64,000 bases of DNA from Longimicrobiales bacterium (GTDB taxonomy: Bacteria; Gemmatimonadota; Gemmatimonadetes; Longimicrobiales; Gaopeijiaceae). A model generated the notes under the pieces. The model made no database searches, was not told the DNA's origin, and saw only the letters and a program-made list of their open reading frames with translations. A program made the translations under genes and the position numbers. Below are positions 2,199-56,279 of this stretch, in pieces. How positions within the stretch are numbered: the first letter of the stretch is position 1; every line of letters starts with the position of its first letter. Location of the stretch: NCBI GenBank assembly GCA_965219445.1, contig CBDCNQ010000004.1:1120001-1184000 (forward strand), read 5' to 3'.

Positions 2199-2314
2199 CT
2201 TTGGTCCCTCCTCGCTCCTAATCTCGCCCTTGTAGAGCGGCGCGTCGAGCTAGCCCTCGGAGTCCTCCGAATCCGACTCCCTCTCGACCTCGATCGAGCA
2301 GCACACGGGCCTGA

Positions 2315-3037: not shown

Positions 3038-3223
3038 CACGGGGATCAGCTTGGCCGAAGGGAACGCCAGGGTCAACGGGTGGATCGCTCCCCCGAGAGT
3101 CCGACCGAAGACCAGGCGATTAGGTTGCTTGCCCAGACTGCCCGCACCCCTCACCTTATCACCCCCGTGAAGGGACTCCTGGTGTGACTGTCCCCGGCGA
3201 ACCCGTTGAGAAGGAGACGGTTC

Positions 3224-4147: not shown

Positions 4148-4175
4148 GAGCTAGACGCCAAACTGTCTGAGGTGG

Positions 4176-4580: not shown

Positions 4581-4613
4581 AGGTGGTCTATCCAGGTTCC
4601 CTCCTAAGCGCCG

Positions 4614-4925
4614 TTAGTCGGCGCCACTATGCCTCCGGATGTAACTGATGTTCGTGACCACCCCGATGGCACAGGCGATGGCAAACAGCACATGGGCGCC
4701 GACCACCACTCGTGACCCCCAGGTCGTATCGAACAGCACGTCCACCCCTAATGCGACCAGCACGAAAAAGAGGGCCATCACCGGAACGGGCATTAGCGAA
4801 ACGCCGCGAGTTCGCCCGGATTCGAGGGGGTTCTTTAGGTCCTCGACACCAGCCTGAGTCAGACTTGCAACCAGGTTCATGAACCACGTCAGCGCCACGA
4901 CGAGGATCAGAATCCAGGTGGACAC
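4614..4925 (-). CDS. Small membrane protein, unknown function
   Basis: Three hydrophobic segments; fits the minus-strand gene run. Confidence 0.6.
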   Translation of the reverse strand: MSTWILILVVALTWFMNLVASLTQAGVEDLKNPLESGRTRGVSLMPVPVMALFFVLVALGVDVLFDTTWGSRVVVGAHVLFAIACAIGVVTNISYIRRHSGAD

Positions 4926-20894: not shown

Positions 20895-21164
20895 GGCCGC
20901 TGTCCGGTCAAAAAGGCTCGCACACTACGGAGGCAGTCGCGCGACGAACTCGTGTCCGAGACTCGCCCGGTCTGCTGAACGGTTAATCTGCCGACCGCGA
21001 GCGAAGCGCGCGACCCTGCTATGTCCCGCCACATGCGAAACGCGCCTGTCTCGTCCAGGCTGTACAAAGAAGGTTCGCCGCCCGAGACTGGGCCCCGGGG
21101 GATCGGCACCATCCTCTGGAGCCACACGATTGAGCGACTGCCCATTGAGAGAGGGGCCATACGC

Positions 21165-22655
21165 ATGTCATACGAGGAGCTGTGCTACAACGAGGTTCGA
21201 CAGACGTCGAGCCACAATGCGTTCCAGCGTCCGGAGAGTATCTATGACCAGGTGGTGTATTGGAGAGTCCGGTCGCTCGAGATCGATTTGCACCGCGGTA
21301 AGCCAGGGCGGCGTGCACTGAAGAAGGACTGGTACATCTATCATGTGGCGTTCATCGACCCCGATACCACGGTGGACCGCTTTAGCGGATTCCTTCAGAT
21401 CTGTCGCGGGATCCAACGAGCCATCCCACAGCACGAAGTGGTGACCGTTTTCCTTGACATCAAGGATCGTTTCCATACGACCGCGTCCGCGTCACAGTCG
21501 GCTGTAGTCTTCGATGGCCTTCTCATCGATGCTCTCGGAGAGGGCCACATCTACCGCCCACAGGACCTGCTGGCTCGCGAGCCCGGAGCGGTGTCGCTCC
21601 AGGCGGCGGTGGCCGCCCAGGGTTGGCCGACCCTGGAAGAATTGAGGGGGAAATTCCTGTTCGTGCTCACCGGAGGAGACGATGAGCTGGCCACGTACGC
21701 CGAATCCGGTACAGCGAACCGACGGGTGGCCTTCCTGTCCACTGGAATGTCGCATGCCAACGAAGTTCCAGCGGATCCACGCATCGTCTTCTACAATATG
21801 AACGGCCAGAATGTGCGTTTCGCGAAGAAGGTTCATGAGGCGGGCCTGGTTTCAAGGGCCTACTACGTCGACTCCAAGGCGCGGTGGCAGTCCGCAGTCG
21901 ATCACGACTGCCACCACATCGCGACCGATCATGTGAACACCCGCCTGGAGCCTTGGTCGAGGACCCGTCGGAGCACCGGTTTCCCCTTCCAGGCGCTGCG
22001 TGGCTACACGCCCTCCGTCACGGAGGCGGGTGAGGTATGCGGCTTGTGGGCGCGATCAGGGGATATCTGGCGTAAACGCGACAGTTTTCTCTACCATTAC
22101 CGGGACTGCTCAGACCGGATAGACAATCGGTATTCGTTCTATATCTCCGGCCCGAACTCGGCAGTCGACGATTGGGTCAAGGGCGGTGTGCTCGTGAGAT
22201 CGTCTCTGGCCAGGAACTCCCCATACTTTGGGGTATTCCGCGTGGGGGAGCACCACGGGCTCCGCATACAGTACCGCGTCTCCTCCAAAGGCCCGACCAT
22301 GGCCGAGGAGAGGAGGCTTGGCCCGGCGGGGCTCTTCGACCCTGACACACTCGTATTCGTCAGACTCAGCGTCAGTCGAGAAGGGCACCGCGTCCGGGGC
22401 TGGGGCTCTGTCGACGGACGCGCTTGGACCGAGCTGGGCCGCTACGAATTCCCCGAGCCGTTGAGGTATCAAGGAATCGGCGTGAGCTCGCACGGAGTCG
22501 CGAGGGGAGCGAAGTTCCTCTTCGGCGTGCCGGGTAACCGCCCTCGCCCCGAGTTCAATCGCCGGCGGTTTATCGGAAAGGGCGACGCAAAAGACAGAGG
22601 ATGGGTCGATTGGGACGGGAAGCGGCGTTGGAGGGTGAACCGCTTCGCTGATTGA
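21165..22655 (+). CDS. PI-PLC-like phosphodiesterase with a C-terminal beta-sandwich domain
   Basis: SSHNAF, VRSLEIDLH, WPTLEELRGKFLFVL and IATD; C-terminal SGDIW, KGGVLVRSSL and SVDGRAW. Confidence 0.7.
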   Translation: MSYEELCYNEVRQTSSHNAFQRPESIYDQVVYWRVRSLEIDLHRGKPGRRALKKDWYIYHVAFIDPDTTVDRFSGFLQICRGIQRAIPQHEVVTVFLDIKDRFHTTASASQSAVVFDGLLIDALGEGHIYRPQDLLAREPGAVSLQAAVAAQGWPTLEELRGKFLFVLTGGDDELATYAESGTANRRVAFLSTGMSHANEVPADPRIVFYNMNGQNVRFAKKVHEAGLVSRAYYVDSKARWQSAVDHDCHHIATDHVNTRLEPWSRTRRSTGFPFQALRGYTPSVTEAGEVCGLWARSGDIWRKRDSFLYHYRDCSDRIDNRYSFYISGPNSAVDDWVKGGVLVRSSLARNSPYFGVFRVGEHHGLRIQYRVSSKGPTMAEERRLGPAGLFDPDTLVFVRLSVSREGHRVRGWGSVDGRAWTELGRYEFPEPLRYQGIGVSSHGVARGAKFLFGVPGNRPRPEFNRRRFIGKGDAKDRGWVDWDGKRRWRVNRFAD

Positions 22656-27094: not shown

Positions 27095-28882
27095 GTGGCC
27101 CATCCCCTTCGAGGTCCGGCGCGTAAAAGCGCGATTCAAAGAGTCACCTCCTGTGCTGTCGCGTCCCTCATCGGGCTCTTCAGTTTGTATTCCATCGCGG
27201 GCGCGCAGTCGCTCGTCGACAGCTATACGCCCGTGACCGAGGCCATGCTACTCAGCCCACCGGACGGCGAGTGGCTGATGTGGCGCCGAACCTACAACCA
27301 CTGGGGGTACAGCCCCCTCGACCAGATCAACACGTCGAACGTAGGCGACCTCCGCCTGGCATGGGCGTGGACCATGGAACCGGGCATGCAGGAAACGACC
27401 CCTTTGGTGCACGACGGGGTCATGTTTCTGCCTCAGGCGTGCGACTTCATCGAGGCGGTGGACGCGCGGGACGGAACGCCGCTCTGGGACTACCGCCGCG
27501 AGCGCGTCGAGCACGCGGCGACCCTGGCGTGCGCCAACCGCAACGCGGCGCTCTACGGCGACCGGCTCTTCCTCGCTACCCACGACGCCTATCTGGTCGC
27601 CCTCGACGCTCGCACAGGAGAGGTCGAGTGGGAGAAGCAGGTTGGGGATTGGACCGTGGGACAGCACTACTCCGGTGGGCCCCAGATCATCAAGGGTCAG
27701 GTCGTCGCGGGCATGTCCGGCTGCTATTTCATCAACACAGGCTGCTGGATCTCGGCCCACGACCTCGAGACGGGTGAGGAGTTGTGGCGCACGCGCACGA
27801 TCCCACAGCAAGGGGAGCCCGGAAGCGAAACCTGGGGAGCCCTTCCAGACGAGCAACGCCGGGGAGGCTCCGCCTGGATTGCCCCGAGCTACGATCCGGA
27901 GCTGAACCTGATCTATAGCGGAGTGGGCGTGCCGGTCCCGTGGGGATCGGTCCAACGAGACACAGGCGGCGGCGACGTCCTCTACACGAATTCGACGCTG
28001 GCCCTGAATGCCGACACGGGCGAGATGGTGTGGTACTTCCAACATCTGCCGGGGGACGAGTGGGACCAGGACCACCCCTTCGAGCGCATCCTGGTTGAGA
28101 CGGAGGTTTCACCCGACCCGGACGCAGTGGCGTGGCTGAATCCCGACATCACGCCGGGCGGCCGACGCAAGGTGGTCACCGGTGTTCCGGGCAAGCCGGG
28201 CCTCGTTTGGACACTAGACGCCGCTACGGGGGACTTCCTGTGGGCACGAGAGACGAGTTACCAGAACGTCATCGTGGATGTCGACATAGCGGGGCGGAAG
28301 GGAATCGCGAACCCAACCATCAGGCCCCAGGCGATCGAGGAGGAAACCCTCGTCTGTCCACACCTGGCAGGCGGCGGCATCAGCTGGCAAGCGGTGGCAT
28401 ACAGCCCAGAAACGAACGCCCTCTACACGCCGACCAACAACGCCTGCATGATCTACACGCTGAATCTGGTGGAGCCGACGATCGGTTTGCACCACGCCTC
28501 CGCGACTTCCCGGCGAGTGCAGGTGCCCAACTCCGACGAGCAGGTCGGTCAGCTCACGTCCGTGAACGTGGCCACGGGACGAACGCGTTGGCTGCATAGG
28601 CAAAGGGCGGGGATCGGCGGGTCCCTGCTCGCCACGGGCGGCGGGTTGGTTTTCGTCACCGACGACGCACGGCGCTTTCGCGCCTTCGACGCCGACACGG
28701 GTGAGATTCTGTGGGAGCAGATTCTCAACTCGACCGCCGGAGGGTACCCGGTCAGCTATAGCGTGGACGGTGTTCAATACATCGCCATCGCAGCCGGTGG
28801 GGGGGTAAACTACCGGAGCATCACCCCGGAGATCCGGCAGCGGGGCGGGGGTAATACACTCTTCGTGTTTCGGCTGCCCTGA
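27095..28882 (+). CDS. PQQ-dependent dehydrogenase (beta-propeller)
   Basis: YSPLDQIN, TPLVHDGVMF, repeated ALDAxTGxxxW docking motifs and YDPELNLIY. Confidence 0.9.
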   Translation: MAHPLRGPARKSAIQRVTSCAVASLIGLFSLYSIAGAQSLVDSYTPVTEAMLLSPPDGEWLMWRRTYNHWGYSPLDQINTSNVGDLRLAWAWTMEPGMQETTPLVHDGVMFLPQACDFIEAVDARDGTPLWDYRRERVEHAATLACANRNAALYGDRLFLATHDAYLVALDARTGEVEWEKQVGDWTVGQHYSGGPQIIKGQVVAGMSGCYFINTGCWISAHDLETGEELWRTRTIPQQGEPGSETWGALPDEQRRGGSAWIAPSYDPELNLIYSGVGVPVPWGSVQRDTGGGDVLYTNSTLALNADTGEMVWYFQHLPGDEWDQDHPFERILVETEVSPDPDAVAWLNPDITPGGRRKVVTGVPGKPGLVWTLDAATGDFLWARETSYQNVIVDVDIAGRKGIANPTIRPQAIEEETLVCPHLAGGGISWQAVAYSPETNALYTPTNNACMIYTLNLVEPTIGLHHASATSRRVQVPNSDEQVGQLTSVNVATGRTRWLHRQRAGIGGSLLATGGGLVFVTDDARRFRAFDADTGEILWEQILNSTAGGYPVSYSVDGVQYIAIAAGGGVNYRSITPEIRQRGGGNTLFVFRLP

Positions 28883-43018: not shown

Positions 43019-45166
43019 CTAACGACTCGGCAGCTTGAAGACGTACAAGGCGTTCCCATTCTGGGGATGCCGGATTTCAGGCGTCACCGCGCGCGGCACA
43101 CCGCGCGGGCTCCCGCCCCCCACGCCAGTGCTGATGGCGATGTACTGTTCCCCATCCACCTCGAAGGACACCGGGAAGCCTTGGACCGACGTCCCGAGCC
43201 TGGTCTGCCACAGAACCTCACCGTTCCGAACGTCGTAGGCACGGAAGTAACGGTCGAGGTCACCCGGGAAGACGAGGCCGCCCCCAGTGCTCAGCGTGGC
43301 CGTGAGAAAGGCCGCCCGCTGTTCGACGCTCCACAGCTCTTCCATCGTATCGATTTCGTAGGCGCCGAGTTTACCCAAGCGACCGTTGGTTCCGGGCATA
43401 TCATTGAAGCGTCGGGACGCGCTCGAGCCGCCCGAACCGGGCTCGAGCACCATCGGTCGCCCCTGGATCTCCAGGCAACTCTGTGAGAGCGGAACGATGA
43501 GCGCGTTCACTTCGGGGCTATAGGACATCGACGGCCAGTTGTGGCCGCCTGCGGTGCTCGGGCACACGGCCACCCAGTCGCCGATCCCAGCCGAAGCGAT
43601 GTCTTCGCGGTAGCGGACCACGCCCGTCCGCGGATCGATGAAGTCGAAAATGTTCTGGTAGATCGACTCCTTGTGCGCCAGGTACTCTCCCCTCTCCCGA
43701 TCCAGCTTCCAGAGGATTCCGTGTTTCCCCATCGCGAACAGCAGGCGCTGGCCGTTGCGATCGATCAGGACCTGCTCGAAGGCCTCGTCCAGGTCGAGCG
43801 ATTCACCGGGAACGTGCTGGCGGTACCAGACGATGGAGCCGTCGTCCGGATCGATTGCCAGGGTGGAGTTGGAATAGAGCGCCGCGTCCTGAACCGTGAG
43901 GCCGCGGCTCGCGGCCACCCACGGCTTGGGCTGGGCGGTTCCCCAGTAGATGAGCCCGAGTTCGGGATCGTAGCTGCCGGTGTTCCACACGTCGACGCCC
44001 CCGCGGAGCTCCAACGGCAGATCACCCCAGGTGTCGCCCCCGGGCTCTCCCGGACGGGCGACCGTGAAGGTCCGCCACACTTCCTCGCCAGTGACGGCGT
44101 CGTGCGCCGTGATGAAGCAGCTCTCCTCGAAGAAGCGGGTGCACCCATTGATGCCGTTGAGTACCTTTCCCTGGACGACGATCGGACCGGCCGAGTTGGT
44201 GAAGCCCTGGTGATGGTCGGCGATCTGAGTCTCCCACACCGTCTCCCCAGTGCGGGCGTCTAGCGCTACCATGTAGGCGTCCCTGGTCGGGACGAAGATG
44301 TTCTCGCCGTAGATCGCCAGGTTGCGGAGTTGATTGAAACCACCGCGTGAAAAGTCGTCCGCGAATTCGCGCCTGTATTCCCAGAGCAGGGTGCCGTCGG
44401 TCCCGTCGAGCGCCTGAATGACGTTGCCCGGATTGGCGAGGTAAACGATGCCGTCATGCACCAGGGGCGTCGGCTGGTTGGTCCCGTCGCCCATCGCCCA
44501 CACCCACGCGAGCCTCAAACCGTCCACGTTGCTCCGGTTGATCTGGTCGAGCGGGCTGAAGCCCTGCGAATCGTATGTGCGCCGGTAGTTGATCCAATCG
44601 CCGTCGTCGGGATTGAGGAGATCCTGTTCGCTAACCGGCTCGAAGTCGGCGATCTCATGGAAGGTCCGAGTCACGCCCCTGGGCCCGGACGGATCGTCAT
44701 CGGCGGCCGCCCGCCGGCCCGCGTCGGCGGCCGCAGATACCTCGGCCACGGCACCCGTCAGCATGGACCCCACGGTCGTCTCGCGATTCGCTTGGACCAC
44801 CCGGCCGTCCCACTCCAAACCGTTGGCCGCTAGCACGTAGACCGTAATCGCATCGTATTCGGCCTCCCTCAACGAGTTAGGAGCCTCGGGAGGCATCGTA
44901 CGAACCGTCGCACGGAATTCGTTGAGCGTGCGCTCCGTCCAAACCGCACGGAAGTTGGGACCCGCCAACTCGGGCGCTTCGAACGATCCTCCGAGTGAGC
45001 CGAGGTGACAGGCCGCGCACACGCTTTCATAAGCGGCTTGGCCTGTGGTGTGCACCTCTTCGGTCAGCGAGAGAGGGGCCGCGTCCTGGGCGCTCAGCAG
45101 CGACCCCGGCGGCAGGAGAAACAGCGCAGCCGCGGCCCAAGCAAAAGATTTGGTAAAGCTCTTCAT
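43019..45166 (-). CDS. PQQ-dependent dehydrogenase with N-terminal cytochrome c
   Basis: Signal peptide, CAACH heme motif, axial Met (TMPP), then a PQQ propeller (SPLDQIN, YDPELGLIYWG). Confidence 0.9.
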   Translation of the reverse strand: MKSFTKSFAWAAAALFLLPPGSLLSAQDAAPLSLTEEVHTTGQAAYESVCAACHLGSLGGSFEAPELAGPNFRAVWTERTLNEFRATVRTMPPEAPNSLREAEYDAITVYVLAANGLEWDGRVVQANRETTVGSMLTGAVAEVSAAADAGRRAAADDDPSGPRGVTRTFHEIADFEPVSEQDLLNPDDGDWINYRRTYDSQGFSPLDQINRSNVDGLRLAWVWAMGDGTNQPTPLVHDGIVYLANPGNVIQALDGTDGTLLWEYRREFADDFSRGGFNQLRNLAIYGENIFVPTRDAYMVALDARTGETVWETQIADHHQGFTNSAGPIVVQGKVLNGINGCTRFFEESCFITAHDAVTGEEVWRTFTVARPGEPGGDTWGDLPLELRGGVDVWNTGSYDPELGLIYWGTAQPKPWVAASRGLTVQDAALYSNSTLAIDPDDGSIVWYRQHVPGESLDLDEAFEQVLIDRNGQRLLFAMGKHGILWKLDRERGEYLAHKESIYQNIFDFIDPRTGVVRYREDIASAGIGDWVAVCPSTAGGHNWPSMSYSPEVNALIVPLSQSCLEIQGRPMVLEPGSGGSSASRRFNDMPGTNGRLGKLGAYEIDTMEELWSVEQRAAFLTATLSTGGGLVFPGDLDRYFRAYDVRNGEVLWQTRLGTSVQGFPVSFEVDGEQYIAISTGVGGGSPRGVPRAVTPEIRHPQNGNALYVFKLPSR

Positions 45167-45234: not shown

Positions 45235-45741
45235 CCGGCGGTTGTGCTGCCGCAGGGCGCGCTCTTCCGCAAGGGTGCCGAGGGCGCCATTCGGCAGCAC
45301 CTCTTGGAGCGTGATCTTATCGAAGCAGTCATTGGGTTGGGCCCGAACATCTTCTATGGCACTGGGCTCGCGCCCGCGATTGTCGTCCTTCGGCGGGCGA
45401 AGACTGCCACGCGGAAGGGACAGGTGCTGATAGTGGACGCTTCGACCATGTTCCGGAAAGGTCGAGCTCAGAACTTTCTCGATCCCGAGCACCGCGAGCA
45501 CATCGTTGCCTGGGTGCACGCTTTCAAGGATGTAGCGGATCGCGCCAAAGTTGTCAGCCTGCGTGAGATCACGGCTGAAGATTGGACGCTCAACATCTCG
45601 CGCTACGTGCTGCCGCCTATCGGGGAGGAGATCCCACCGTTGCCAGAGGCGATCGCGGCCTTCAAGCAGGCGCTCTCTGAATGCCGAGGGGCCGAGGACC
45701 GCCTGCGGGAGGTCATGACCGACGGAAACTGGCTCGCATGA
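45235..45741 (+). pseudogene. hsdM: Type I R-M methyltransferase subunit M1, C-terminal fragment only
   Basis: AVVLPQGALFR, EAVIGLGPNIFYGTG and WTLNISRYV; SAM-binding and NPP motifs are missing; TGA overlaps the ATG of M2. Confidence 0.85.
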
Positions 45742-47249
45742 GCACATCCGCTGAACACATGAGCCAGCAGGACCTTGAGTCCTACCTCTGGGGCGCCGCG
45801 AAGCTCTTGCGGGGCCTGATCGATGCCGGCGACTACAAGCAGTACGTCTTCCCGTTGCTCTTCTTCAAGCGCCTGTCGGACGTGTGGGACGAGGAGTACC
45901 AACGCGCGCGCGACGAGACGGGTAACGCTCGGGCCACTGCCGATGACCGTTTCGTGATCCCCGACGGCGCACACTGGTCCGACGTCCGCAGTGCGTCTCG
46001 CGACGTGGGCCGGGCACTGCTTAAGGCCTTCCGCGCCATTGAGGCGGCCAACCCGGAGCGCCTGAACGGCGTCTTCGGGAATGCCTCGTGGACAGACAAG
46101 GCGCAGATGCCCGACGAGACGCTGAAGAATCTCATCGAGCACTTTTCACAGCACACCTTGAGCTTGGCCAAGGTCCCAGAGGACGAGCTGGGCAACGGCT
46201 ACGAGTACCTCATCAAGCAGTTCGCCGCCGACAGCGGCCACACCGCGCAGGAATTTTACACCAACCGCACCGTGGTCCATCTCATGACGCAGATGCTTGA
46301 GCCGCAACCGGGTGATCGCATCTACGATCCAACGGCCGGCACGGCCGGCATGCTCATCTCGTCGCTGGCGGAGGTGAAACGCCGAGGCGGTGACGCGCGC
46401 ACGCTGGGGCTATACGGCCAGGAGCTGATCCACATCACGGCCGCCATTGCCCGGATGAACTTGGTCCTGCACGGCGTGGAAGACTTCGAGATCGTCGCGG
46501 GCAACACGTTGAGCCAGCCAGCATTCATCGACCGCGACCACCTACGGACTTTCGACGTGGTCCTCGCCAATCCGCCGTACTCGATCAAGAAGTGGAACCG
46601 CGAGGCGTGGCAGCACGACCCCTGGGGCCGCAACTTCCTCGGGACGCCGCCGCAGGGCCGCGCCGACTACGCCTTCTTCCAGCACATCCTCAAGAGCCTC
46701 GACCCACAGACCGGCCGCTGCGCAATTCTCTTCCCGCATGGTGTGCTCTTCCGCAACGAAGAAGCGGCGATGCGGCGACAGCTTGTCGAGTTGGACCTTC
46801 TCGAGTGTGTGCTCGGCCTCGGACCGAACCTCTTCTATAACTCGCCCATGGAAGCCTGCGTGGTGGTGTGCCGAACACGGAAGCCCTCCGGCCGCGAGGG
46901 AAAGGTCTTGTTCATCGACGCTGTGCATGACGTGGCACGGGAGCGGGCCCAGAGCTTCCTCAAGGCCGAACATCAGCAGCGCATTCTCACCGCCTATCAG
47001 GCGTTTACCGATGACCCCGGCTTCGCCAAGGTCGCGACGGCGACGGAAATCCTCCAGAAGGACGGCAACCTGTCGATCTCACGCTACGTGCGGCCAGTTG
47101 CCGGTGCAGCCGACGACGCCAGCCCAGGCGGCGATCTGCGGAGCGCTTGGGCCGAGTTCGAAGCGAGCGGCCGCGATTTCTGGCCGCAGATGGACGCGCT
47201 CGTAGACATACTGGATGGCGTTGCCACAGAGGAGACGTCCGATGCTTAA
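45738..47249 (+). CDS. hsdM: Type I R-M methyltransferase subunit M2 (NPPY)
   Basis: LWGAAKLLRG, EFYT, YDPTAGTAGML, LYGQE, ANPPY and FPHGVLFR. Confidence 0.95.
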   Translation: MSTSAEHMSQQDLESYLWGAAKLLRGLIDAGDYKQYVFPLLFFKRLSDVWDEEYQRARDETGNARATADDRFVIPDGAHWSDVRSASRDVGRALLKAFRAIEAANPERLNGVFGNASWTDKAQMPDETLKNLIEHFSQHTLSLAKVPEDELGNGYEYLIKQFAADSGHTAQEFYTNRTVVHLMTQMLEPQPGDRIYDPTAGTAGMLISSLAEVKRRGGDARTLGLYGQELIHITAAIARMNLVLHGVEDFEIVAGNTLSQPAFIDRDHLRTFDVVLANPPYSIKKWNREAWQHDPWGRNFLGTPPQGRADYAFFQHILKSLDPQTGRCAILFPHGVLFRNEEAAMRRQLVELDLLECVLGLGPNLFYNSPMEACVVVCRTRKPSGREGKVLFIDAVHDVARERAQSFLKAEHQQRILTAYQAFTDDPGFAKVATATEILQKDGNLSISRYVRPVAGAADDASPGGDLRSAWAEFEASGRDFWPQMDALVDILDGVATEETSDA

Positions 47250-48423
47250 ATCGGCGTCCAAGAACGGGTGGATCAAGCACCGCTTCGATGAGATGGCGGT
47301 CGTGGTCAATGACCGCATCGATGACCCTGCCAAAGCCGACGTTGAGTACTACGTCGGCCTTGAGCATCTCGACTCTGAGTCACTCGCCATCCGTCGATGG
47401 GGAGCACCCTCTGACGTAGGTGCAACCAAACTGCGATTTCGGGCTGGTGACATCATCTTCGGTCGGCGGCGGGTGTACCAACGCAAGCTGGCGGTGGCCG
47501 ACTTTGACGGCATTTGTTCGGCGCACGCCATGGTACTCCGGGCGAAGCCAGCCGTCGCGTTGCCTGAGTTCCTACCATTTTTCATGCAGAGCGACCTCTT
47601 TATGGAGAGGGCGAGGGAGATTTCTGTCGGATCCCTGTCGCCGACAATCAACTGGAAGACCTTGGCGAAGGAAGAGTTCGCCCTGCCGCCGCTGGGAGAG
47701 CAGCGGCGGATTGCTGAGGTTCTAGGTGCAGCGGAGTCGGTGGTTGAGTCGCTACGTAACCTGAGACGATCGCTCCACGCTGTAGAAATCGGACACCTTG
47801 AGGACGTCATGCTCGGAATGCCTAATAGTGCACTTGTACCTGTGGCGACACTACTCCGCGAGCCGCCGCGAAACGGCATCTCCCCGAGTGTAAACTCCGA
47901 TGGAGAAGGCCTCAAGACAGTGAGTATCAGCGCGGTCAGTGACGGGATCTTCGATCCAACCGGGTGCATCAAACATGCGAAGATCGATGCTGACGTTGCC
48001 TGCCAGTTCTTTGTAAAGCGCGGGGATGCCTTTGTCATTCGTGGCAACGGGAATCGTCAACTTTGCGGCAAGGTGGGCCTCAGCGACGAATCCCACGATG
48101 AACTCTTCTACCCGGATCTTCTAATTCGGCTTCGTTTTGACACGAACAAAATTCTCCCGCAGTTCGCAGTAGCACAGTGGAACTTGCCCAGCGTCCATAG
48201 GCGGCTTAGTGCTAAAGCTAAGTCATCAAATGGGATCTGGAAGGTCAATGGACAAGACATCCGTGCTCACCATCTCTTCGCCCCTGCTCCTGCGGAACAG
48301 CGGAGCATGATGGGAGATCTCGCCACGCTTCGGGCGGGTCTTTGGAATGTCCGGGCACGCGAAGGAGCCGCTCAGCGTATCAAAGGGATATTAACGACAG
48401 AGGTTGGGTCAATAGGTGTGTAA
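47242..48423 (+). CDS. hsdS: Type I R-M specificity subunit
   Basis: Two TRDs with PPLGEQRRIA and PAPAEQR conserved regions; the last codons and stop lie inside the IS256 repeat. Confidence 0.9.
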   Translation: MLKSASKNGWIKHRFDEMAVVVNDRIDDPAKADVEYYVGLEHLDSESLAIRRWGAPSDVGATKLRFRAGDIIFGRRRVYQRKLAVADFDGICSAHAMVLRAKPAVALPEFLPFFMQSDLFMERAREISVGSLSPTINWKTLAKEEFALPPLGEQRRIAEVLGAAESVVESLRNLRRSLHAVEIGHLEDVMLGMPNSALVPVATLLREPPRNGISPSVNSDGEGLKTVSISAVSDGIFDPTGCIKHAKIDADVACQFFVKRGDAFVIRGNGNRQLCGKVGLSDESHDELFYPDLLIRLRFDTNKILPQFAVAQWNLPSVHRRLSAKAKSSNGIWKVNGQDIRAHHLFAPAPAEQRSMMGDLATLRAGLWNVRAREGAAQRIKGILTTEVGSIGV

Positions 48424-48428
48424 ATGTT

Positions 48429-49673
48429 TCAGGCGGCGTTTTTCCGCTGTTGGGTTGAGACGGGCTTTCCGTCTTCGAACTTTCTTCCTTCAAATACGTC
48501 CTTGAGGAGGTGAGGAGCGTCGAGCCTTCTGAAGCGCTTCTCCGCCACCAAGAGCAGCTTCCAGATCAGCGCCGTAGCGCTCTCGACCCGCTTGAAGCGC
48601 TTCGCCGCCGTTGTCCTGAGCCGTACTGCGGCAAAGGGGCTCTCGACCACGTTCGTCGTGCGTAGATGCTTCCAGTGGTCCTCGGGGAAGTCGTAGAACG
48701 CCACCATCCGCTCCCAGTCGTCCTCGAGTACATCCACCGCCTTCGGATACCACGGTCTGTAGCGCCTGGCGAACGCCTCACGGGCCTTCAGCGCCTCGGA
48801 CCGCCTCGGTGCGTAGACCACGGTCCTGAGAAGGTCCTTCGCCTCGCTCTGCTCCCGCTGAGGCAGCCGGTCCAGCACGTTCCTCATCTTGTGGTTCCAG
48901 CACCGTTGCTCGCCCGCCTCAGGCCATACCTGCCGTACTGCGCCCCAGATCGCCGCGTTGCCGTCCGCCATCAAAAGCCGGGGCGCCTCGATGCCGCGTG
49001 CCTTCAGATCCCGCAACACCTCGGACCAGGACTCGACCGACTCTCGGTAGCCCGATCTCAGGGCCAACACCTCCTTCGTACCATCTCGCATCGCACCGAG
49101 AACCACCAGCAGCGCTGCCTTGTCCCGCTCGAGCCCCGCCTTCACGTAGATCCCGTCCGCCCAGACGTAGACGACCTCACGGTCGGCCAGCGAGCGCTTC
49201 GACCATTCCTCGAATTTCCTTGTCCATCCCGCCCGCAGCCGCCAAATCGAAGACTTCGACAACGGGGCCCCCTCGCCCAGCAGGCCCCGCATCGCCAGCT
49301 CGAAGTCTCCCTCCGCCAGCCCGTGCAGATACAGCTCCGGAAGCAGAGCACCCACCTCCTTCGTCCGTCGTGCGAACAACGGCAACACCCGACTCTCGAA
49401 CCGCTCCTCAATGCCTCGAACCCGGGGCCGTCGGAGCATGATCGTGCCCGAGCTCATCGCCAGCCGCCGAGCCTTGCCGTAGCCGTTGCGGTAGCCTGGC
49501 GCCGGGTCTACGACCGTCTTCCGCTCCGACTTCTCCCGGCCGAGCAACTCCGTCACTTCCTCCTCCAGAATCCGCTGGACCATCTCCTGGGCCTTCTCAC
49601 GAACCAGCGCTTCCAAGCACTCCCACGTCGGCGTGCTGGACTCACTCTCGGGTCCCACCATATTCTTCCTCAC
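48429..49673 (-). CDS. IS256 family transposase
   Basis: YRNGY, RPRVR, WADGIY (D), MADG (D), QRCWNH and TTNVVE (E). Confidence 0.95.
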   Translation of the reverse strand: MRKNMVGPESESSTPTWECLEALVREKAQEMVQRILEEEVTELLGREKSERKTVVDPAPGYRNGYGKARRLAMSSGTIMLRRPRVRGIEERFESRVLPLFARRTKEVGALLPELYLHGLAEGDFELAMRGLLGEGAPLSKSSIWRLRAGWTRKFEEWSKRSLADREVVYVWADGIYVKAGLERDKAALLVVLGAMRDGTKEVLALRSGYRESVESWSEVLRDLKARGIEAPRLLMADGNAAIWGAVRQVWPEAGEQRCWNHKMRNVLDRLPQREQSEAKDLLRTVVYAPRRSEALKAREAFARRYRPWYPKAVDVLEDDWERMVAFYDFPEDHWKHLRTTNVVESPFAAVRLRTTAAKRFKRVESATALIWKLLLVAEKRFRRLDAPHLLKDVFEGRKFEDGKPVSTQQRKNAA

Positions 49674-49766
49674 GAGGCATCGTTCCTTTCCCCCGGGCGC
49701 TCACCCGGGATTCGCTGGTTAACTTCTTACTACCTAGCGGAAAGGTACGTCGCCTCTTTTTTTACA

Positions 49767-51666
49767 ATCGGGATAGGGGAGGACCGGCGATCCCGGTCCT
49801 TCCCCTCCCACACCACCAGGCATGCGGGTCCGCACCTGGCGGTTCGGTGAGTTGAGGTCAGTACGGCGTGAGCCGGGGCACACCCAGCTCGTCGAAGTAC
49901 GCCCCTGGCAAGGCCGTGTGCAGGGCGTGGTGCGCGGCCACGTGCCACCAGCTTCGCGCGAACCGAGCAGCTCGCCAGGCGAGGTTCTCGCTCACACCGC
50001 GAGCCCTCAACTCCCGGTACGCTGTCCTTCCCCGTTTCCACTGGCGTAATTGCAACGTACGCAGCCGGCGGTGGATCCATTGGTCCAGGTCTCGGAAAAC
50101 CCCCGGTGTATCCGCTAAGCCGAAGTATGCCTTCCACCCCAGCACGTAGCGCCGTAGCTCTTCTGCCACCTGTTGCAGGCTCCGCCCGCCACTCCGGCTT
50201 GTAATCTGCCGGACTCGCTCCTTGAACTTCGTCAGGGCCTTCTTGCTGACCCGGCGCTTCACGACCTTCCCTGCCGCTACCCAGAAGCTGTAGCCCAGGA
50301 ACTGTCGATCCCACACTCGCGCCACCGCGCTCTTTTCCTCGTTGACCTGAAGCCGAAGTTTCCCGTACAAGTGCCTCAGCGCCTGCATCACACGTTGTCC
50401 TGCCCGCCTCGACCGCACGTATACATTGCAGTCATCGGCGTACCGGACAAACGCGTGTCCGCGTAGCTCCAACTCCTTGTCCACTTCGTCCAGGAGCACG
50501 TTCGCCAGCAACGGCGACAACGGTCCGCCCTGAGGCGTCCCCATGTGCCGCTCCATCACCACCCCGTTCGCCATGACTCCGGCTTCCAGGTAGCGACGGA
50601 GGATCCGCAGCATCGCCTTATCCTCGATCCGCTTTGCCAGCCGCCCCATCAGCACGTCGTGGTTCACCCGGTCGAAAAACTTCTCCAGGTCCACATCCAC
50701 CACCCATCGTCTCCCCTCCTGGATGTAGTGCTGCGCTTCGCGCACCGCATCGTGCGCTCGGCGCCCAGGCCGGAAGCCGTGGCTGTGCCGACTGAACGTC
50801 GGGTCGAACCTCGGTTGCATCACCTGCAGGATGGCTTGTTGGATGAACCGGTCCAGCACGGTCGGAATCCCCAACTCCCGGACCCCTCCCCCACTCTTCG
50901 GTATCTCCTGCCTTCGTACCGGCTTCGGTTGGTAGGTCCCCGCCAGCAACCGCTGTCGGATCTCCCCCCAGTGCCTGCGCAAGTACTCTGGCAGCTCCTC
51001 CACGTTCATCCCGTCGATGCCCGGACTGCCCTTATTCTGCCGCACGCGTTTCAACGCTCCTACGAGGTTGGCACGCCCGACCACCTCCTGCATCAGGAGA
51101 TGCTCGCTTCCTGAGCGCTCGTCTCCATGGGCCACCGTTCCGGCTTCGCCACTCCCCTCTACCTTCGGGGCTTCACCCCTATCCTCCAGTGGGAGCTCCA
51201 GTTGCCTGGACTCCTGGCGCATGGCCTTGCCGAGGTCCACGGTCGTCACGCTCTCCTCTCCGTTCGGCCCTTCGTCCGACAAAGCTGGGTCCAAGCGCAT
51301 CATGCACTTCGTCGGCCTACTATGGCCTCTGCTGACTTCTCGCTCCGCCGGCAGGCCCAACAGCGCAGTGCCGGCGTCACCCTTTCAGGCGTCAGGCGAG
51401 ACCTCCCCGGGTAAGAACGATGACCTTCCCCGCACAATCGCCGGATCTACGCCGCTTCCCCTTGGTCGCAGGAGCTTCGCGGTCAGTGGTCCGCTCGCCC
51501 CGGTCCGCAGCGCCTCGTATCCGGTTCCTGTTCGTCGACTCACGGGTTCGTTTCACGCTTCGTTCAGCGTACGCCTCACGACGAACGCCTTGCGCTTCCC
51601 TTCGGTCCCTGCGACCAGGTTCCGGGAGGACTTTCACCTCCAAGTCATCGCCCATGCCGGGCCCAC
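49767..51666 (-). mobile_element. Group II intron, bacterial class C (IIC), 1900 nt
   Basis: 5' GTGGGCCCGGCATGGG; D5 GAACCGCCAGGTGCGGACCCGCATGCCTGGTGGTGT with a CGC triad; D6 hairpin ending CTATCCCGAT. Removing it restores the IS256 repeat. Confidence 0.92.
49858..51222 (-). CDS. ltrA: Group II intron reverse transcriptase/maturase, no endonuclease domain
   Basis: PGIDG, RELGIPTVLDR, DLEKFFD, GTPQGGPLSPLLAN, RYADD, FLG and GWKAYF; start uncertain. Confidence 0.95.
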   Translation of the reverse strand: MRQESRQLELPLEDRGEAPKVEGSGEAGTVAHGDERSGSEHLLMQEVVGRANLVGALKRVRQNKGSPGIDGMNVEELPEYLRRHWGEIRQRLLAGTYQPKPVRRQEIPKSGGGVRELGIPTVLDRFIQQAILQVMQPRFDPTFSRHSHGFRPGRRAHDAVREAQHYIQEGRRWVVDVDLEKFFDRVNHDVLMGRLAKRIEDKAMLRILRRYLEAGVMANGVVMERHMGTPQGGPLSPLLANVLLDEVDKELELRGHAFVRYADDCNVYVRSRRAGQRVMQALRHLYGKLRLQVNEEKSAVARVWDRQFLGYSFWVAAGKVVKRRVSKKALTKFKERVRQITSRSGGRSLQQVAEELRRYVLGWKAYFGLADTPGVFRDLDQWIHRRLRTLQLRQWKRGRTAYRELRARGVSENLAWRAARFARSWWHVAAHHALHTALPGAYFDELGVPRLTPY

Positions 51667-51686
51667 CACCCTTCTATGGGGCTGGC

Positions 51687-51692
51687 GGTCAA
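51687..51692 (-). promoter_or_regulatory. -35 box (TTGACC) of the IS110 circle-junction promoter; -10 CATCAT is at 53265-53260
   Basis: Joining the right end to the left end through AAGG gives TTGACC-N17-CATCAT. Confidence 0.7.
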
Positions 51693-51844
51693 GACGCACC
51701 TTCCCCACGCGCCGTCGGCTCATTTTTTGACCGTCGGCGTCCGCATGGTTTGGATTGCCCGGTCGACGACTCAGGGTGGGGAGGGGTGCGCTCGCAGGGT
51801 CCGCATCGCAGTCCGGAAGACGTTCACAGCCGTCGCGTTCTCCG

Positions 51845-52000
51845 CTCTGGAGCGGGAACCATCCTTCTATCTGGGACTCTGTGGCCCATCGCTTCGTTCG
51901 GCTCTCCAGGGGTGCATAGCCTTTGAGTGGGGGCTTGGGCTCTCTGCCCCGGCCCACGGTGTGTATGGATGCTGTCCCCTGTAACCGGTTCGCTTCCGTT
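51845..52000 (-). ncRNA. Predicted bridge RNA/seekRNA core (target- and donor-binding loops); ends approximate
   Basis: Loop 1: cagggg..gcat-cca[TACACACC]gtggg..cccac[TCAAAGG]ct-atgc-a-cccctg. Loop 2: gaac[gaagcga]tggg..ccca[gATAGAAGGatg]gttc. The guides match the target and donor. Confidence 0.8.
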
Positions 52001-52058
52001 TCGTCGGACCCCATGTTGTGACCGCTTTCGACCCCACGCTCGCCGATCCCAGGCCGGT

Positions 52059-53114
52059 TTACTCCGTCGCTTCCAGTCTCTTGGGGTCGTACGCTTCGCC
52101 CGTGCGCCACACCGCTAGCACGATCGAGGCGAGCTGACGCGCGATCGTCAGCTTCGCCAGATTCGGCTTCGTGCCCCCCTCCAGGAGTCGCTCGTAGTGG
52201 CGGTACAAGGGCTCGTCCTCGGCCCGACCGATCACCGTCGTCGCTGCGCCCTTGAACACACGCTTCAGCGTGTGGTTGAAGTTCCGATTCAGCCCCCGCG
52301 TCTGCTGTACCGGTTCCCTTACCCACCGCCCACCCGGACCCCGCACCCAGTCCGACGAGCTCCGCATCACGACGCCCAGTCCGCAGTACGCCCAGAACCT
52401 GCTCCGGCTCTGGAACCGGTACGGCGTCACCACCACCGGCAGGAGCTCCGCCGTCCGGATCGGACCCAGACCCGGGCACGTCTTCAGCACATGCCACTCT
52501 CGATGCTTGCGTGCTTCCGCCAGCAACGCCTTCTCGGCCTTCGCCCTCAATGCCACGAGTGCGTCGTGCTCCTCGTACAGCAACCCGGCCGTCGTCCTGC
52601 TCGCTTCCGGCAGCTTGGCCAACCACTCCTCCCGGTCGCGCTTTAAGTAGACCGAGCGCCCCGCGCCGTAGGCCACTCCTCTCGAGCGCAGCACGCTCTT
52701 GAGCCGGTTCTTCACCCGCACCGTGTCGCCGACCAAGAAGTCGTAGCTCTTCGCCCGTTCCCCCAGCCGCCTGAACTGGCCCCGGTTCTTGTAGACCGTC
52801 GTCTCCAGTGATCCGATCCGCAGCTTCTCCGCCAGGGCAAACGCGTCCAGCTTGTCGGTCTTCGGGCCCCGGCTCTTGCCGACCCCCGCCACCGTCAGCT
52901 CCTCCACGTGCGGCTTCAGCACCTCGTACAGCCACCCCGACAGCGTCCCTTCTTCCAGGCATAAGTGCCGGTTCCTCGGAATCCCTCGCAGCACCTCGAT
53001 CAGCGCCCGCGCGTTCGTCTCCACCACCTGCGAGCCCAAGCGCTTGCCGCTGGGGCCTACAATCCCCAGCGTGCAGCTCGACGCGTGTGCGTCGAGTCCG
53101 ATATACCTCTCCAT
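52059..53114 (-). CDS. IS110 family DEDD recombinase/transposase
   Basis: GAGGAGG RBS; YIGLD, LEEG, KTDKLDA, CPGLG, AYCGL..RSS and ARQL. Confidence 0.95.
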   Translation of the reverse strand: MERYIGLDAHASSCTLGIVGPSGKRLGSQVVETNARALIEVLRGIPRNRHLCLEEGTLSGWLYEVLKPHVEELTVAGVGKSRGPKTDKLDAFALAEKLRIGSLETTVYKNRGQFRRLGERAKSYDFLVGDTVRVKNRLKSVLRSRGVAYGAGRSVYLKRDREEWLAKLPEASRTTAGLLYEEHDALVALRAKAEKALLAEARKHREWHVLKTCPGLGPIRTAELLPVVVTPYRFQSRSRFWAYCGLGVVMRSSSDWVRGPGGRWVREPVQQTRGLNRNFNHTLKRVFKGAATTVIGRAEDEPLYRHYERLLEGGTKPNLAKLTIARQLASIVLAVWRTGEAYDPKRLEATE

Positions 53115-53309
53115 GGGCATCCTCCTCTTGGGTAGGACGGGTTGGGTTGCTTGCTTGCGCGAATAATGATGAACGCGCACCCGCTCCCGGAGGAGAACGC
53201 CTCTTCGTCTTCGGGCTGCTTCGCTGCTGATCGGTACCGGTAGCGGTCGCCATGCCCCTATGATGCCTTTGATCCTAGCTCCCTTGGCGACACACAGGGT
53301 GTGGCCTGG

Positions 53310-56279
53310 ATGGGTAGCTTCAACGAAGCCAATACGGTCGAAGCTTTCATCCGAGACCGTCTATGTGGCGGTACCACACATCACACCGCCGTCCGCTCCG
53401 GCCTGGCCCATCGTCACAGTCAAGTGTCCGGTCTTGGCTGGCACTACCTCGCACCACAGAATCTGTCACGCCAGCCGCACGAAGTCCTCGTTGAGGATCG
53501 TCTCCGTGAGGCGTTGATTCGACTGAACCCGGAAATTGCCGAACAGCCTGACCGTGCGGACGACGTCCTGTACAAGCTCCGCGCCATCATCATGGGCGTA
53601 CGTAGCGACGGGCTTGTCAAGGCCAACGAGGGGTTTGCGGCTTGGCTGACCGGCGAGCGGTCGATGCCGTTTGGCGAGCATGGCGAGCACGTGACCGTCC
53701 GGCTGATTGACTTCGAGGACCTCAAGCGCAATCAATACGTCGTCACCACCCAGTTCACCTACCGTGCCGGCGCGACCGAGAAGCGGGCGGATCTCGTCCT
53801 GCTGGTCAACGGCATTCCCCTGGCGGTAATCGAAGCGAAGACTCCCGTCCGGGCCAGCCAAAGCTGGTTCGACGGCGCACTCCAGATCCATGACGACTAC
53901 GAACGCAATGTCCCGGAGCTGTTCGTTCCAAACGTCATCTCCATCGCCACTGAAGGCAAAGAGTTCCGGTACGGGTCCATCGGTCTGCCGGTTGAACTGT
54001 GGGGACCATGGCGCATCGAGGCGGACGCTGAGACACCGGCCCTTGTGCGCATCGCCCAAGCCGTCGACTCGATGCTACGGCCGAATGTCGTTCTGGATCT
54101 ACTGGCCAACTTCACAGCGTACGCCACGGACAAGAATAAGCGCCGCATCAAGATAGTTGCGCGCCATCAGCAGTACGAGGCCATCAATCGAATCATGGAG
54201 CGTGTGGTCGCGGGCCACCCGAAAAAGGGTCTCATTTGGCATTTTCAAGGTTCGGGCAAGTCCCTCCTGATGCTCTTCGCCGCCCGCAAGTTGCGACTGC
54301 ATGCGGCGCTCAAGAATCCCACCGTGATGGTCGTGGTCGATCGCGTCGACCTCGACAGCCAGATTTCGAGCACGTTCTACGCCGCCGACACACCGAACTT
54401 GGTGAAGGCCGACAGTCGGGTCGAACTGCAGCGCCTGCTGACGCAGGACACTCGAAAGATCATCATCACGACGATCTTCAAGTTTGCGGAGGCCGAGGGT
54501 GTCCTGAACGACCGCGGCAACATCATCGCGATGGTCGACGAAGCCCATCGCACGCAGGAAGGCGATCTTGGCCGCACGATGCGCGAGGCGCTACCAAACG
54601 CTTTTCTGTTCGGCCTGACCGGCACACCGATCAACCGCGCTGACCGCAACACGTTTTACGCCTTTGGGGCCGAGGAGGACCAAGCTGGCTACATGAGCCG
54701 CTACGGTTTCGAGGAATCGATCCGCGACGGCGCCACGATGCCGCTCCACTTCGAGCCGCGGTTACTGGATCTGCACATCGACAAGGAAGCCATCGACCAG
54801 GCGTTCACGCAGCTCACGGGTCGCCTAAGCGACCTGGACAGGGACCAGTTGGCGAAGACTGCCGCGAAGATGGCGGTACTGGTGAAGTCCCCGGAACGGA
54901 TCCAGACGGTCTGCGCCGACATCGCGCGGCACTTCCAAGAGAAGGTCGCGCCGCACGGCTTCGGCGCCCAGGTGGTCACCTTCGACCGCGAAAGCTGTGT
55001 GCTCTACAAGGAAATGCTCGACGAGCACCTGCCGTCTGAGATGTCGGACATCGTGATGACGGTCAACAGCGGCGAGGACCAATATGCCGCGTACCGTCGC
55101 GACCGCGACGCCGAAGAGAAGCTGCTTTACCGATTTCGCGATCCAGCCGACCCACTGAAGATCTTGATCGTCACCTCGAAACTGCTGACGGGGTTCGACG
55201 CGCCTATTCTTCAGGCGATGTACCTCGACAAGCCGCTTCGAGACCATACGCTGCTACAGGCGATCTGCCGCACGAATCGGCCCTTCGGTGAGGTCAAGAC
55301 GCACGGGCTCATCGTTGACTATCTTGGGGTCTTCGACGATGTGGCGCAGGCGATTCAGTTCGACGAGGAAGGAATCACCAGGGTCATCAAGAACATCAGC
55401 GAGTTGGCTGGTCGTCTGCCCGAGGCTGTGCAGAAGTGCCTCGCGTACTTCCCGGACGTCGATCGGATCGTTACCGGTTACGAGGGCCTCGTGGCGGCGC
55501 AGGCCTGCTTACCGACCAACGACGTGCGAGATCACTTCGCCGCCGACTACAGCTACCTGGCGCGATTGTGGGAGGCCCTCTCACCGGATCCTGTCCTGAG
55601 TGCGCACGAGACCGACTACCGCTGGCTCACGCAGGTCTACGAGTCTGTGCGACCTTCGACGGGCACGGGCCGCCTTCTGTGGCATGCACTTGGCCCGAAG
55701 ACCATTGAGCTGATTCACGAGCACGTCCACGTTGACGCCATCAGAGACGACCTCGAAACGCTCGTGCTCGACGCCGATCTCCTTGAGGCTGTGCTCGGCG
55801 CGCCCGATCCAGGGAAAAAAGCGAAGGAGATCGAGATCAAGGTCTCGCGGTGGCTTCGGAAGCGTCTGCACGACCCTCGGTTCAAAGAGCTTGGAGAACG
55901 GCTGGAGGCGCTCAAGGAGAGACATGAGCGGGGACTGCTCACGAGTGTTGAGTTCTTGAAGGAACTGCTTAATCTCGCGCGGGATGTCGTGTCAGCCGAT
56001 CGCACGGTGCCTCCGATGGAACGCGAAGAGCAAGGGAAGGCGGCTCTTACCCAGCTCTTTGAAGAGGCGAGAAATCCCGACACTCCGATCATCGTCGAGC
56101 GCGTTGTGACCGACATCGACGAGATCGTGCGGTACGTTCGGTTCGACGGCTGGCAGAGTACGCATGCGGGCGAACGCGAGGTCAAGCTAGCCCTTCGAAA
56201 AACGCTCTTCAAGTACAAGCTCCATCAAGATCAGGAGCTGTTCAACAGAGCGTACGGCTACATCAGAGAGTATTACTAA
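53310..56279 (+). CDS. hsdR: Type I restriction endonuclease subunit R
   Basis: ADLVLLVNGIPLAVIEAK, WHFQGSGKS, VDEAHR, GLTGTP, LLTGFDAP and QAICRTNR. Confidence 0.95.
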   Translation: MGSFNEANTVEAFIRDRLCGGTTHHTAVRSGLAHRHSQVSGLGWHYLAPQNLSRQPHEVLVEDRLREALIRLNPEIAEQPDRADDVLYKLRAIIMGVRSDGLVKANEGFAAWLTGERSMPFGEHGEHVTVRLIDFEDLKRNQYVVTTQFTYRAGATEKRADLVLLVNGIPLAVIEAKTPVRASQSWFDGALQIHDDYERNVPELFVPNVISIATEGKEFRYGSIGLPVELWGPWRIEADAETPALVRIAQAVDSMLRPNVVLDLLANFTAYATDKNKRRIKIVARHQQYEAINRIMERVVAGHPKKGLIWHFQGSGKSLLMLFAARKLRLHAALKNPTVMVVVDRVDLDSQISSTFYAADTPNLVKADSRVELQRLLTQDTRKIIITTIFKFAEAEGVLNDRGNIIAMVDEAHRTQEGDLGRTMREALPNAFLFGLTGTPINRADRNTFYAFGAEEDQAGYMSRYGFEESIRDGATMPLHFEPRLLDLHIDKEAIDQAFTQLTGRLSDLDRDQLAKTAAKMAVLVKSPERIQTVCADIARHFQEKVAPHGFGAQVVTFDRESCVLYKEMLDEHLPSEMSDIVMTVNSGEDQYAAYRRDRDAEEKLLYRFRDPADPLKILIVTSKLLTGFDAPILQAMYLDKPLRDHTLLQAICRTNRPFGEVKTHGLIVDYLGVFDDVAQAIQFDEEGITRVIKNISELAGRLPEAVQKCLAYFPDVDRIVTGYEGLVAAQACLPTNDVRDHFAADYSYLARLWEALSPDPVLSAHETDYRWLTQVYESVRPSTGTGRLLWHALGPKTIELIHEHVHVDAIRDDLETLVLDADLLEAVLGAPDPGKKAKEIEIKVSRWLRKRLHDPRFKELGERLEALKERHERGLLTSVEFLKELLNLARDVVSADRTVPPMEREEQGKAALTQLFEEARNPDTPIIVERVVTDIDEIVRYVRFDGWQSTHAGEREVKLALRKTLFKYKLHQDQELFNRAYGYIREYY

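Follow-up and report, generated by a model that had tools for sequence, protein, structure and literature searches.

Three nested mobile elements at the left end of an IS256 copy: an IS110-family element predicted to target that end and a late group II intron in a Longimicrobiales genome

Background

Insertion sequences (ISs) of the IS1111 type may reside in the ends of other mobile elements. The closest precedent is that of IS5075 and IS4321, which insert in the terminal repeats of Tn21 at one position and in one orientation, a safe harbour from which they occasionally stray to look-alike off-targets (PMC8269217). Class IIC group II introns, for their part, insert behind terminator motifs (PMC4424553). 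An IS1111 element in another element's end, class IIC insertion behind hairpins, and nested introns are thus already known. We describe a locus in which an IS110-family element of IS1111 type and a group II intron both lie inside the left terminal inverted repeat (IRL) of one IS256-family copy. It belongs to a Longimicrobiales genome, G000 (4.56 Mb in 5 contigs), and was analysed in a stretch of 64,000 nucleotides, G000:C4:1120001-1184000, designated 'the window'. The best explanation of the nest is three successive insertions, with IS110 programmed against the IRL and the intron arriving late and once; we put the probability of this reading at about 80%.

G-numbers designate genomes (G000 being the source), L-numbers homologous loci and X-numbers read runs. 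Read evidence consisted of contigs only, from 4 of the 24 listed runs, and statements on reads refer to the contig matches listed.

Results

An IS256 left end in three pieces

The nest is composed of the following segments; the basis of each assignment is given in brackets.

53267..53281, minus strand: outer bp 1-15 of the IS256 IRL, ending in the AG core used by IS110 (intact IRL of relatives)
51671..53266, minus strand: IS110-family element of IS1111 type, 1,596 bp including one AG core (copy census and relatives)
51667..51670, minus strand: IRL bp 16-19 (GGTG), which are the start of the IS110 right target and intron-binding site 1 (IBS1) of the intron (copy comparison)
49767..51666, minus strand: group II intron with class IIC features, 1,900 nt; putative exon-binding site 1 (EBS1) loop at 51490-51483 (13 genome copies)
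48400..49766, minus strand: IS256 body, with the inner IRL from a conserved TGTAAA, an intact transposase at 49673-48429 and the right terminal inverted repeat (IRR) at 48424-48400 (profiles and alignment)

The minus-strand IRL is therefore cut into three pieces by IS110 (1,596 bp) and the intron (1,900 bp), as a sequence-only reading of the window had claimed. That reading had joined the pieces and matched them to the IRR at 20 of the first 25 nt; an intact natural IRL gives the same 20/25. Such intact IRLs, which it had expected to exist, were found in 14 of 14 fetched copies of the relative G043 (43 matched) and at a contig loose end in run X4. The inner insertion sites had been placed 3 bp apart. 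Their close spacing stands, with a corrected distance of 4 bp: the window by itself leaves the IS110 boundary undecided across AAGG, but relatives with other flanks (G041 copies, L031, L033) have only AG common to both junctions. This sets IS110 at 53266-51671, after IRL bp 15, and makes the middle piece GGTG (51670-51667), 4 nt.

The IS256 transposase (48429-49673) matches NF033543 (295 bits, cut-off 150) and PF00872, and is a Mutator-type DDE enzyme. Family features were present, namely terminal repeats with a subterminal TGTAAA, and duplications of 8-9 bp at other copies. The window IS256 body is identical to 15 of the 23 other aligned copies.

Order of insertion and integrity of the assembly

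The order IS256, then IS110, then intron is supported. The IS256::IS110 junction without the intron, another form that had been anticipated, occurs 21 times in G000. Since intron-free composites are the rule, since no intron lies in an IS110-free IRL, and since the intron breaks the right target of IS110 after 4 of its 7 nt, the intron came last; the hierarchy proposed earlier is supported, also by pairs of filled and empty flanks described below. In reads, the intron-free junction appears as a 1,900-base skip at a depth of 146 (X1) and 127 (X2), compared to about 5 for hsdS, the gene preceding the nest, in X1.

All three elements are high-copy repeats, and one may ask whether the three-tier junction, or its placement in a restriction locus, is an artefact of repeat collapse during assembly. 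Many IS256 copies have permuted flanks, in part between contigs, the window copy is without a normal target duplication, and the intron junctions are unspanned among the contig matches listed. Against this, the intron ends are exact and its flanks fit the preferences of the 12 other copies at IBS1 and IBS3. The window allele of the intron is unique, with at least 5 positions different from each other copy. Moreover, X1 and X2 contigs run from hsdS into the IRR without differences, while an X4 contig joins 48393 to 53288 directly, that is, an empty site with no mobile DNA; together they make both flanks one locus. We consider an artefact highly improbable.

On a wider scale, target duplications are permuted among IS256 copies, also across contigs (for example the cycle C3:152179, C3:162158, C4:1221680), and the IS110, IS256 and intron alleles of G000 are mosaics. 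This points to extensive recombination between repeats, or to some mis-joins.

IS110 and a single position of the IS256 left end

Among the 24 IS110 left ends in G000, 23 lie at the identical IRL base (one being a broken remnant). The remaining one is an off-target insertion at C2:336726, which matches the bottom-strand guide described below over 9 nt. Right-end/IRL junctions number 22 (21 without the intron, plus the window copy), all in the same orientation; for IS110, the co-orientation seen earlier in the window is fixed by the guides. Five IS256 left ends have kept their inner part and are free of IS110. All five are altered, each differently (one insertion, one deletion, three substitutions), and no intact 14-nt target was found in G000. 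This genome-wide pattern, programmed targeting with only altered sites left empty, did not figure in the sequence-only reading.

One IS110 allele sits both in the main IS256 type and in a type differing at 154 columns. One IS256 left flank is shared by G007, where it is empty, and G000, where IS110 fills it (595/600 nt identical); a second flank is empty in G006 and filled in G007 (175 nt exact). IS110 was therefore gained or lost at resident IS256 ends. Taken with the covariation of guides and targets reported next, the copy census shows an IS110 that behaves as a specialist for one IRL position, with programmed targeting.

Predicted guides of IS110

The following parts of IS110 were delimited.

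52059..53114, minus strand: DEDD recombinase open reading frame (ORF), 351 aa, intact (PF01548 and PF02371)
51845..51995, minus strand: predicted bridge/seek RNA core, limits approximate (guide covariation and fold)
51964-51958, minus strand: predicted top-strand target guide (covariation)
51926-51920, minus strand: predicted bottom-strand target guide (covariation)
51870-51863, minus strand: predicted donor guide (copy of the element's own right end)

The recombinase scored above cut-off for PF01548 and PF02371; for NF033542 it reached an E-value of 4e-32 and 112 bits, below the cut-off of 140. Non-coding DNA extends over 388 nt downstream of its gene (52058-51671), compared to 152 nt upstream (53266-53115). 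In the predicted internal loop, a 7-nt stretch complementary to the right half of the target precedes a 7-nt copy of its left half; the predicted fold leaves both target guides unpaired, with a stability no better than that of shuffles (z -0.76).

Covariation was scored with one row per distinct guide; loci were left out when no end could be detected, when an additional AAG stood at the junction or when they contained an internal tandem junction. For the bottom guide, 12 distinct guides gave 51 matches to the targets in 60 non-core positions, where 20,000 shuffles averaged 21 and reached 46 at most. For the top guide, taking the best of three registers in data and shuffles alike, 68 of 90 positions matched over 15 guides (shuffled 41, maximum 59 in 10,000). 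An alternative top guide downstream, beside the bottom guide, was rejected: it sits in a conserved stem and does not vary with the targets.

The order of the guides (top before bottom) and the 3' non-coding end are as in IS1111 members (PMC11187229). In that group, the subterminal inverted repeats are near-perfect, 11-13 bp long, with extensions of 7 and 3 bp. Here, the repeat is a 12-bp match that needs two 1-nt bulges, with 7/3 offsets, and its two sides change together in L083 and L095. By its recombinase, its 3' non-coding end and the order of its guides, the element is a bridge-recombinase type IS110 of the IS1111 group.

A predicted circle-junction promoter of IS110 has its -35 and -10 boxes spaced by 17 nt in 10 of 10 loci listed (11 tried). 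No circle joint was seen among the contig matches listed (contigs only, 4/24 runs), and a promoter scan of the linear locus gave 0 sites.

Tandem duplications of the 3' part of IS110, including the bridge RNA end, were observed at G000:C5:1612735-1613245 (one extra) and in L025 of G042, at 3554-4841 (two extra). In each, the IS110 right end is fused to an AG lying within the gene of the recombinase. They recall the RNA-only mini-circles reported for ISPpu9 (PMC12288879).

Altered empty targets in relatives

The closest relatives of this IS110 are in metagenome-assembled genomes (MAGs) of Longimicrobiales (Gemmatimonadota). In G041, 5 left ends are filled and 10 are free, none intact (10/10 free altered); eight of the ten share one core-destroying allele, five of these with perfect duplications of 8-9 bp. 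In G042, 2 are filled and 1 is free and altered. G044 has 7 intact targets and one IS110 with changed guides. The altered empty sites fit escape in genomes where IS110 is active, which five genomes cannot prove.

The altered IRLs could instead be by-products, that is, scars of imprecise IS110 excision, products of recombination between the two junctions of distinct copies, or consensus errors drawn from reads of filled copies. Among the three main-type free IRLs, two in fact resemble hybrids between left target and IS110 right end, and one base is missing from the third; the flanks of all three come from different original insertions or are unmatched, and imprecise junctions are also found in filled copies (C5:1030810, L022/L142). 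Such an origin hardly accounts for the G041 allele, present in 8 of 10 free copies, five with perfect duplications: it must have multiplied as such, and it is also found in G007 (L134). Two free copies of G000, moreover, carry single changes and their own duplications. We regard by-products as possible but the lesser explanation; scars and escape are in any case compatible, because only changed sites would remain empty.

Two further observations concern the relatives. The IS110 of G044 (L029/L151), 95% identical, has both target guides changed and its left junction in an IS256 IRR-like end, a natural reprogramming. IS110 relatives at L031, L033, L034 and L169-L177 (about 80% identity, measured on L031-L034) lie at a different shared motif beside short hairpins, in Gemmatimonadota and metagenome contigs.

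The intron, a generalist

Two features bear on the intron.

49858..51360, minus strand: intron reverse transcriptase (RT)/maturase ORF, no endonuclease domain found; start codon uncertain (TIGR04416, 422 bits)
51677..51707, minus strand: weak hairpin within the IS110 right end that stops 10 nt short of the intron and holds the -35-like TTGACC (51692-51687) of the predicted circle-junction promoter (fold)

Two hairpins, assigned to the catalytic domain V and to domain VI, close the intron at its 3' side, where the sequence ends in CGAT (Rfam RF02001 and RF01998). A CGC triad is a mark of class IIC, and the sequence shows the features of that class.

G000 contains 13 full copies, and such an IS junction is occupied by the window copy alone. 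GTG forms the end of IBS1 at 11 of the 13 sites, and a pyrimidine is found at +1 at 12 of them. At nine of the 12 other sites, the preceding hairpin ranks within the most stable tenth of a background of 3,000 matched sites. The distance of 10 nt between hairpin and intron at the window site is within the range of the other sites; without IS110, the site folds at a mean of -4.6 kcal/mol (19 flanks), compared to -7.9 kcal/mol with it. The chance of one such hit was roughly estimated at 3%, from 13 insertions, 22 junctions and about 9,900 comparable sites. We conclude that the presence of the intron at the IS110/IRL junction is mildly unusual and not targeted, the intron being a generalist that probably used the weak IS110-end hairpin together with the GGTG of the IRL. 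The earlier notion that two RNA-guided elements hit the IRL holds for IS110 and overstates the case for the intron, 12 of whose 13 copies are elsewhere, mostly behind strong hairpins.

The association was not seen to recur: the intron was at the IS110 right end in none of 300 other genomes of the order (most of which lack this IS110), nor did it occur at any of the 19 IS110 right ends matched in five closely related genomes or at 9 metagenome loci. L085, a deltaproteobacterial MAG locus with an IS110 homologue beside an RT gene, was considered as a recurrence and rejected as the reverse nesting: at 2028-4804, the IS110 homologue lies within a group II intron, between a domain I match and the RT gene.

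The intron copies C3:364525 and C5:914323 have identical flanks (a duplicated region or a repeated target). Several sites (C2:107443, C3:41351) follow putative tRNA or tmRNA 3' ends, judged by resemblance, together with a terminator.

Mobility of the interrupted IS256

The nest had been proposed to immobilise the IS256. This is likely for the window copy, whose IRL stays split by the intron even without IS110; IS256::IS110 composites, which keep bp 1-15 of their IRL, may be immobile or may still move. The transposase of ISCth4, an IS256-family element, binds two stretches of the donor end, bp 7-11 and bp 14-25 (PMC7780238), and by analogy a left end split at bp 15 would be unable to serve as donor. 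In vitro, an ISCth4 junction whose left end is reduced to 14 bp can nevertheless integrate, and it has been argued that circle formation and attack on the recipient end are measured from the subterminal site (PMC7780238). Excision of IS621 is far less efficient than insertion (PMC13626964); since it does excise, if poorly, precise loss of IS110 could occasionally free a composite. The donor loop by itself is reported to suffice for excision (PMC13626964), so the intron at the right junction may not lock IS110 in place. Group II introns are not known to exit DNA precisely, so the window IRL would stay split.

The flank of the window copy bears on its arrival. It departs from the usual 8-9 bp duplication by a 5-bp repeat and six extra bases:

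53282..53287, plus strand: six extra bases beside the IRL, inside the 5-bp repeat (48395-48399 and 53288-53292); missing from the X4 empty allele

The six bases equal those beside the IRL at an IS110-filled copy, G000:C4:110844, with a shared suffix of 9 nt (0.003 such pairs expected among 378). They are probably a retained IS256 circle spacer.

This raises the possibility that a composite moves as a unit, the IRR acting as donor end, the 15-bp stub of the IRL being its passive partner and IS110 hitch-hiking. The window copy may then have arrived already carrying IS110, and the 6-bp spacer would bring -35 and -10 halves together across the IS256 circle junction, 17 nt apart and reading into the recombinase and bridge RNA; the spacer does place the IRR TTGACC and the IRL TAGGAT 17 nt apart. 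Most identical main-type IS256 copies carry IS110, still with 8-9 bp duplications. The foreign bases, shared with an IS110-filled copy and missing from the empty allele, fit a poorly processed left end, ISCth4 junctions with a 14-bp left end can integrate, and ISCth4 spacers measure 6-8 bp (PMC7780238). Attack measured from the subterminal site (PMC7780238) would nevertheless have to act here 1.6 kb from the tip. In addition, IS110 alleles are far more varied than their IS256 hosts (22/23 distinct compared to 8/24), 12 IS110 columns and 46 IS256 columns set the putative donor copy apart from that of the window, and imperfect duplications also flank IS110-free copies in G043. We find movement as a unit rather unlikely, and retain insertion of IS110 into a resident IS256.

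Linkage of IS110 and IS256 variants was examined in G041 on 4 copies only, with mosaic alleles. Imperfect target duplications, considered as a mark of composite movement, are not diagnostic. Use of the IS110 right end as a new IS256 left end was found in none of the 22 matches examined.

The restriction locus

Profile searches and ORFs gave the plus-strand order hsdM fragment, hsdM, hsdS, 4.9 kb of minus-strand mobile DNA, and hsdR.

45244..45741, plus strand: hsdM fragment, N-terminally truncated (ORF and profile)
45681..47249, plus strand: hsdM, complete (ORF and profile)
47215..48423, plus strand: hsdS, type I restriction-modification; final codons and stop now supplied by the IS256 IRR (ORF and profile)
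53310..56279, plus strand: hsdR, ORF intact, 4.9 kb away from hsdM-hsdS; ATG start inferred, the ORF call beginning at 53301 (ORF and profile)

The hsdS reading frame is kept and terminates within the IRR. Loss of restriction from the hsdS/hsdR locus is plausible from this arrangement; two more hsdM-hsdR sets are found elsewhere in G000. An uninterrupted hsdS-hsdR junction had no orthologue in 200 family genomes. The IS256 of this defence locus is one of about 28 IS256 left ends in G000, with no sign that the defence setting matters, and the setting of the nest looks incidental.

The hsdM fragment (45244-45741) begins abruptly beside the start of an unrelated pyrroloquinoline quinone (PQQ) dehydrogenase gene, and an N-terminal hsdM part, 46% identical, lies at G000:C5:1331320, near another intron copy. 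Elsewhere in the window, the genes at 21021-22655, 27095-28882 and 43019-45166 encode a phosphoinositide phospholipase C-like protein and a pair of PQQ-dependent dehydrogenases, one of which carries a cytochrome c fusion. By appearance, the remainder of what was scanned is ordinary metabolism and transport.

Discussion

The proposed history has three steps. IS256 first inserted at the hsdS-hsdR junction, as the existence of an empty allele shows. A bridge RNA would then have directed IS110 to IRL bp 9-22, with recombination at the AG core after bp 15 in one orientation, by a chemistry inferred from IS621 and ISEc11; this would separate the IRL tip from the subterminal transposase-binding site. 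In G000, IS110 has filled every intact target, so that only altered IRLs stay empty. Finally, the intron would have reverse-spliced once, 4 nt downstream, its EBS1 pairing with the GGTG of the IRL and the IS110 right-end hairpin probably standing in for a terminator; it would not have been aimed at IS256. The outcome is a permanently split IRL and an IS256 copy probably immobile in cis, while three intact enzymes could act in trans.

Several results weigh against this account. The window hairpin is ordinary, at -7.9 kcal/mol, 31% of background sites being at least as stable. Held to one fixed register, the top guide performs weakly (41/105 compared to 32 shuffled, P = 0.036), its register having been relaxed afterwards, and the relatives in the covariation test are not independent of each other. 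Bridge RNA expression was not seen; the contigs of one RNA run cover the intron and not IS110, a gap in contig cover that is uninformative. Among the contig matches listed (contigs only, 4/24 runs), none crosses the IS110-intron or the intron-IS256 junction. Lastly, 45 targets in G043 are intact and empty, and the one complete IS110 of that genome has its guides unchanged, its recombinase bearing three private substitutions; G007 has 5 intact targets, 3 altered and 4 filled. Saturation of intact targets is not general.

More speculatively, the IS256 left end may be the object of an arms race. The guide would overlap a conserved transposase-binding motif, leaving escape mostly to bp 12-15; resistant IRLs would spread where IS110 is active, IS110 would re-tune its guides, and filled copies might travel as composites that switch on IS110 from the IS256 circle promoter. 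As a whole, we hold this scenario to be tentative and somewhat unlikely.

By itself, the triple nest is a curiosity of an IS-rich genome. Its value lies in the programmed relation between IS110 and IS256 and in the possible escape alleles. What the locus offers is a bridge recombinase found in nature, for which a 14-nt target and an AG core are defined and some two dozen filled sites occur in a single genome; the natural target variants that have remained empty provide a ready mismatch-tolerance series. IS110 parasitism of transposon ends is extended from Tn21 to the IS256 family, and a population question becomes testable, namely whether other insertion sequences are held in check by RNA-guided elements and come under selection for resistance.

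Comparison with known systems

In the literature covered, which did not include supplementary target tables, neither an IS110/IS1111 element in an IS256 end nor such a triple was found. The closest precedent remains IS4321/IS5075, where, as here, an IS1111-type element lives in the terminal repeat of another element. Those elements target a Tn3-family repeat, whereas here the target is the IRL of a small IS256-family IS, the core is AG and the host belongs to Gemmatimonadota. Near-saturation with only altered sites empty, as seen here, is not reported for IS4321/IS5075 in the part of that account available (PMC8269217).

With the seekRNA systems of ISEc11, ISKpn4 and ISPa11, and with IS621, the element shares the DEDD recombinase, predicted guides for both strands, a predicted donor guide copied from its own end and a predicted circle-junction promoter (PMC11187229, PMC11208160); the 3' non-coding end and the top-before-bottom guide order are those of IS1111 members (PMC11187229). 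It differs by a new target specificity and by imperfect subterminal repeats with two 1-nt bulges.

The intron resembles class IIC introns in having no endonuclease domain, a short 5' exon match and most of its sites behind stem-loops (PMC4424553). The window site departs from these in that an IS end supplies the hairpin, a weak one, and a second IS supplies the exon match.

ISCth4 has, as here, a subterminal TGTAAA, 8-bp duplications, a flank-derived circle spacer of 6-8 bp and -35/-10 halves in its two ends (PMC7780238). Unlike ISCth4, the window copy has its left end interrupted at two points, after bp 15 and after bp 19, and seemingly kept 6 spacer-like bp once integrated.

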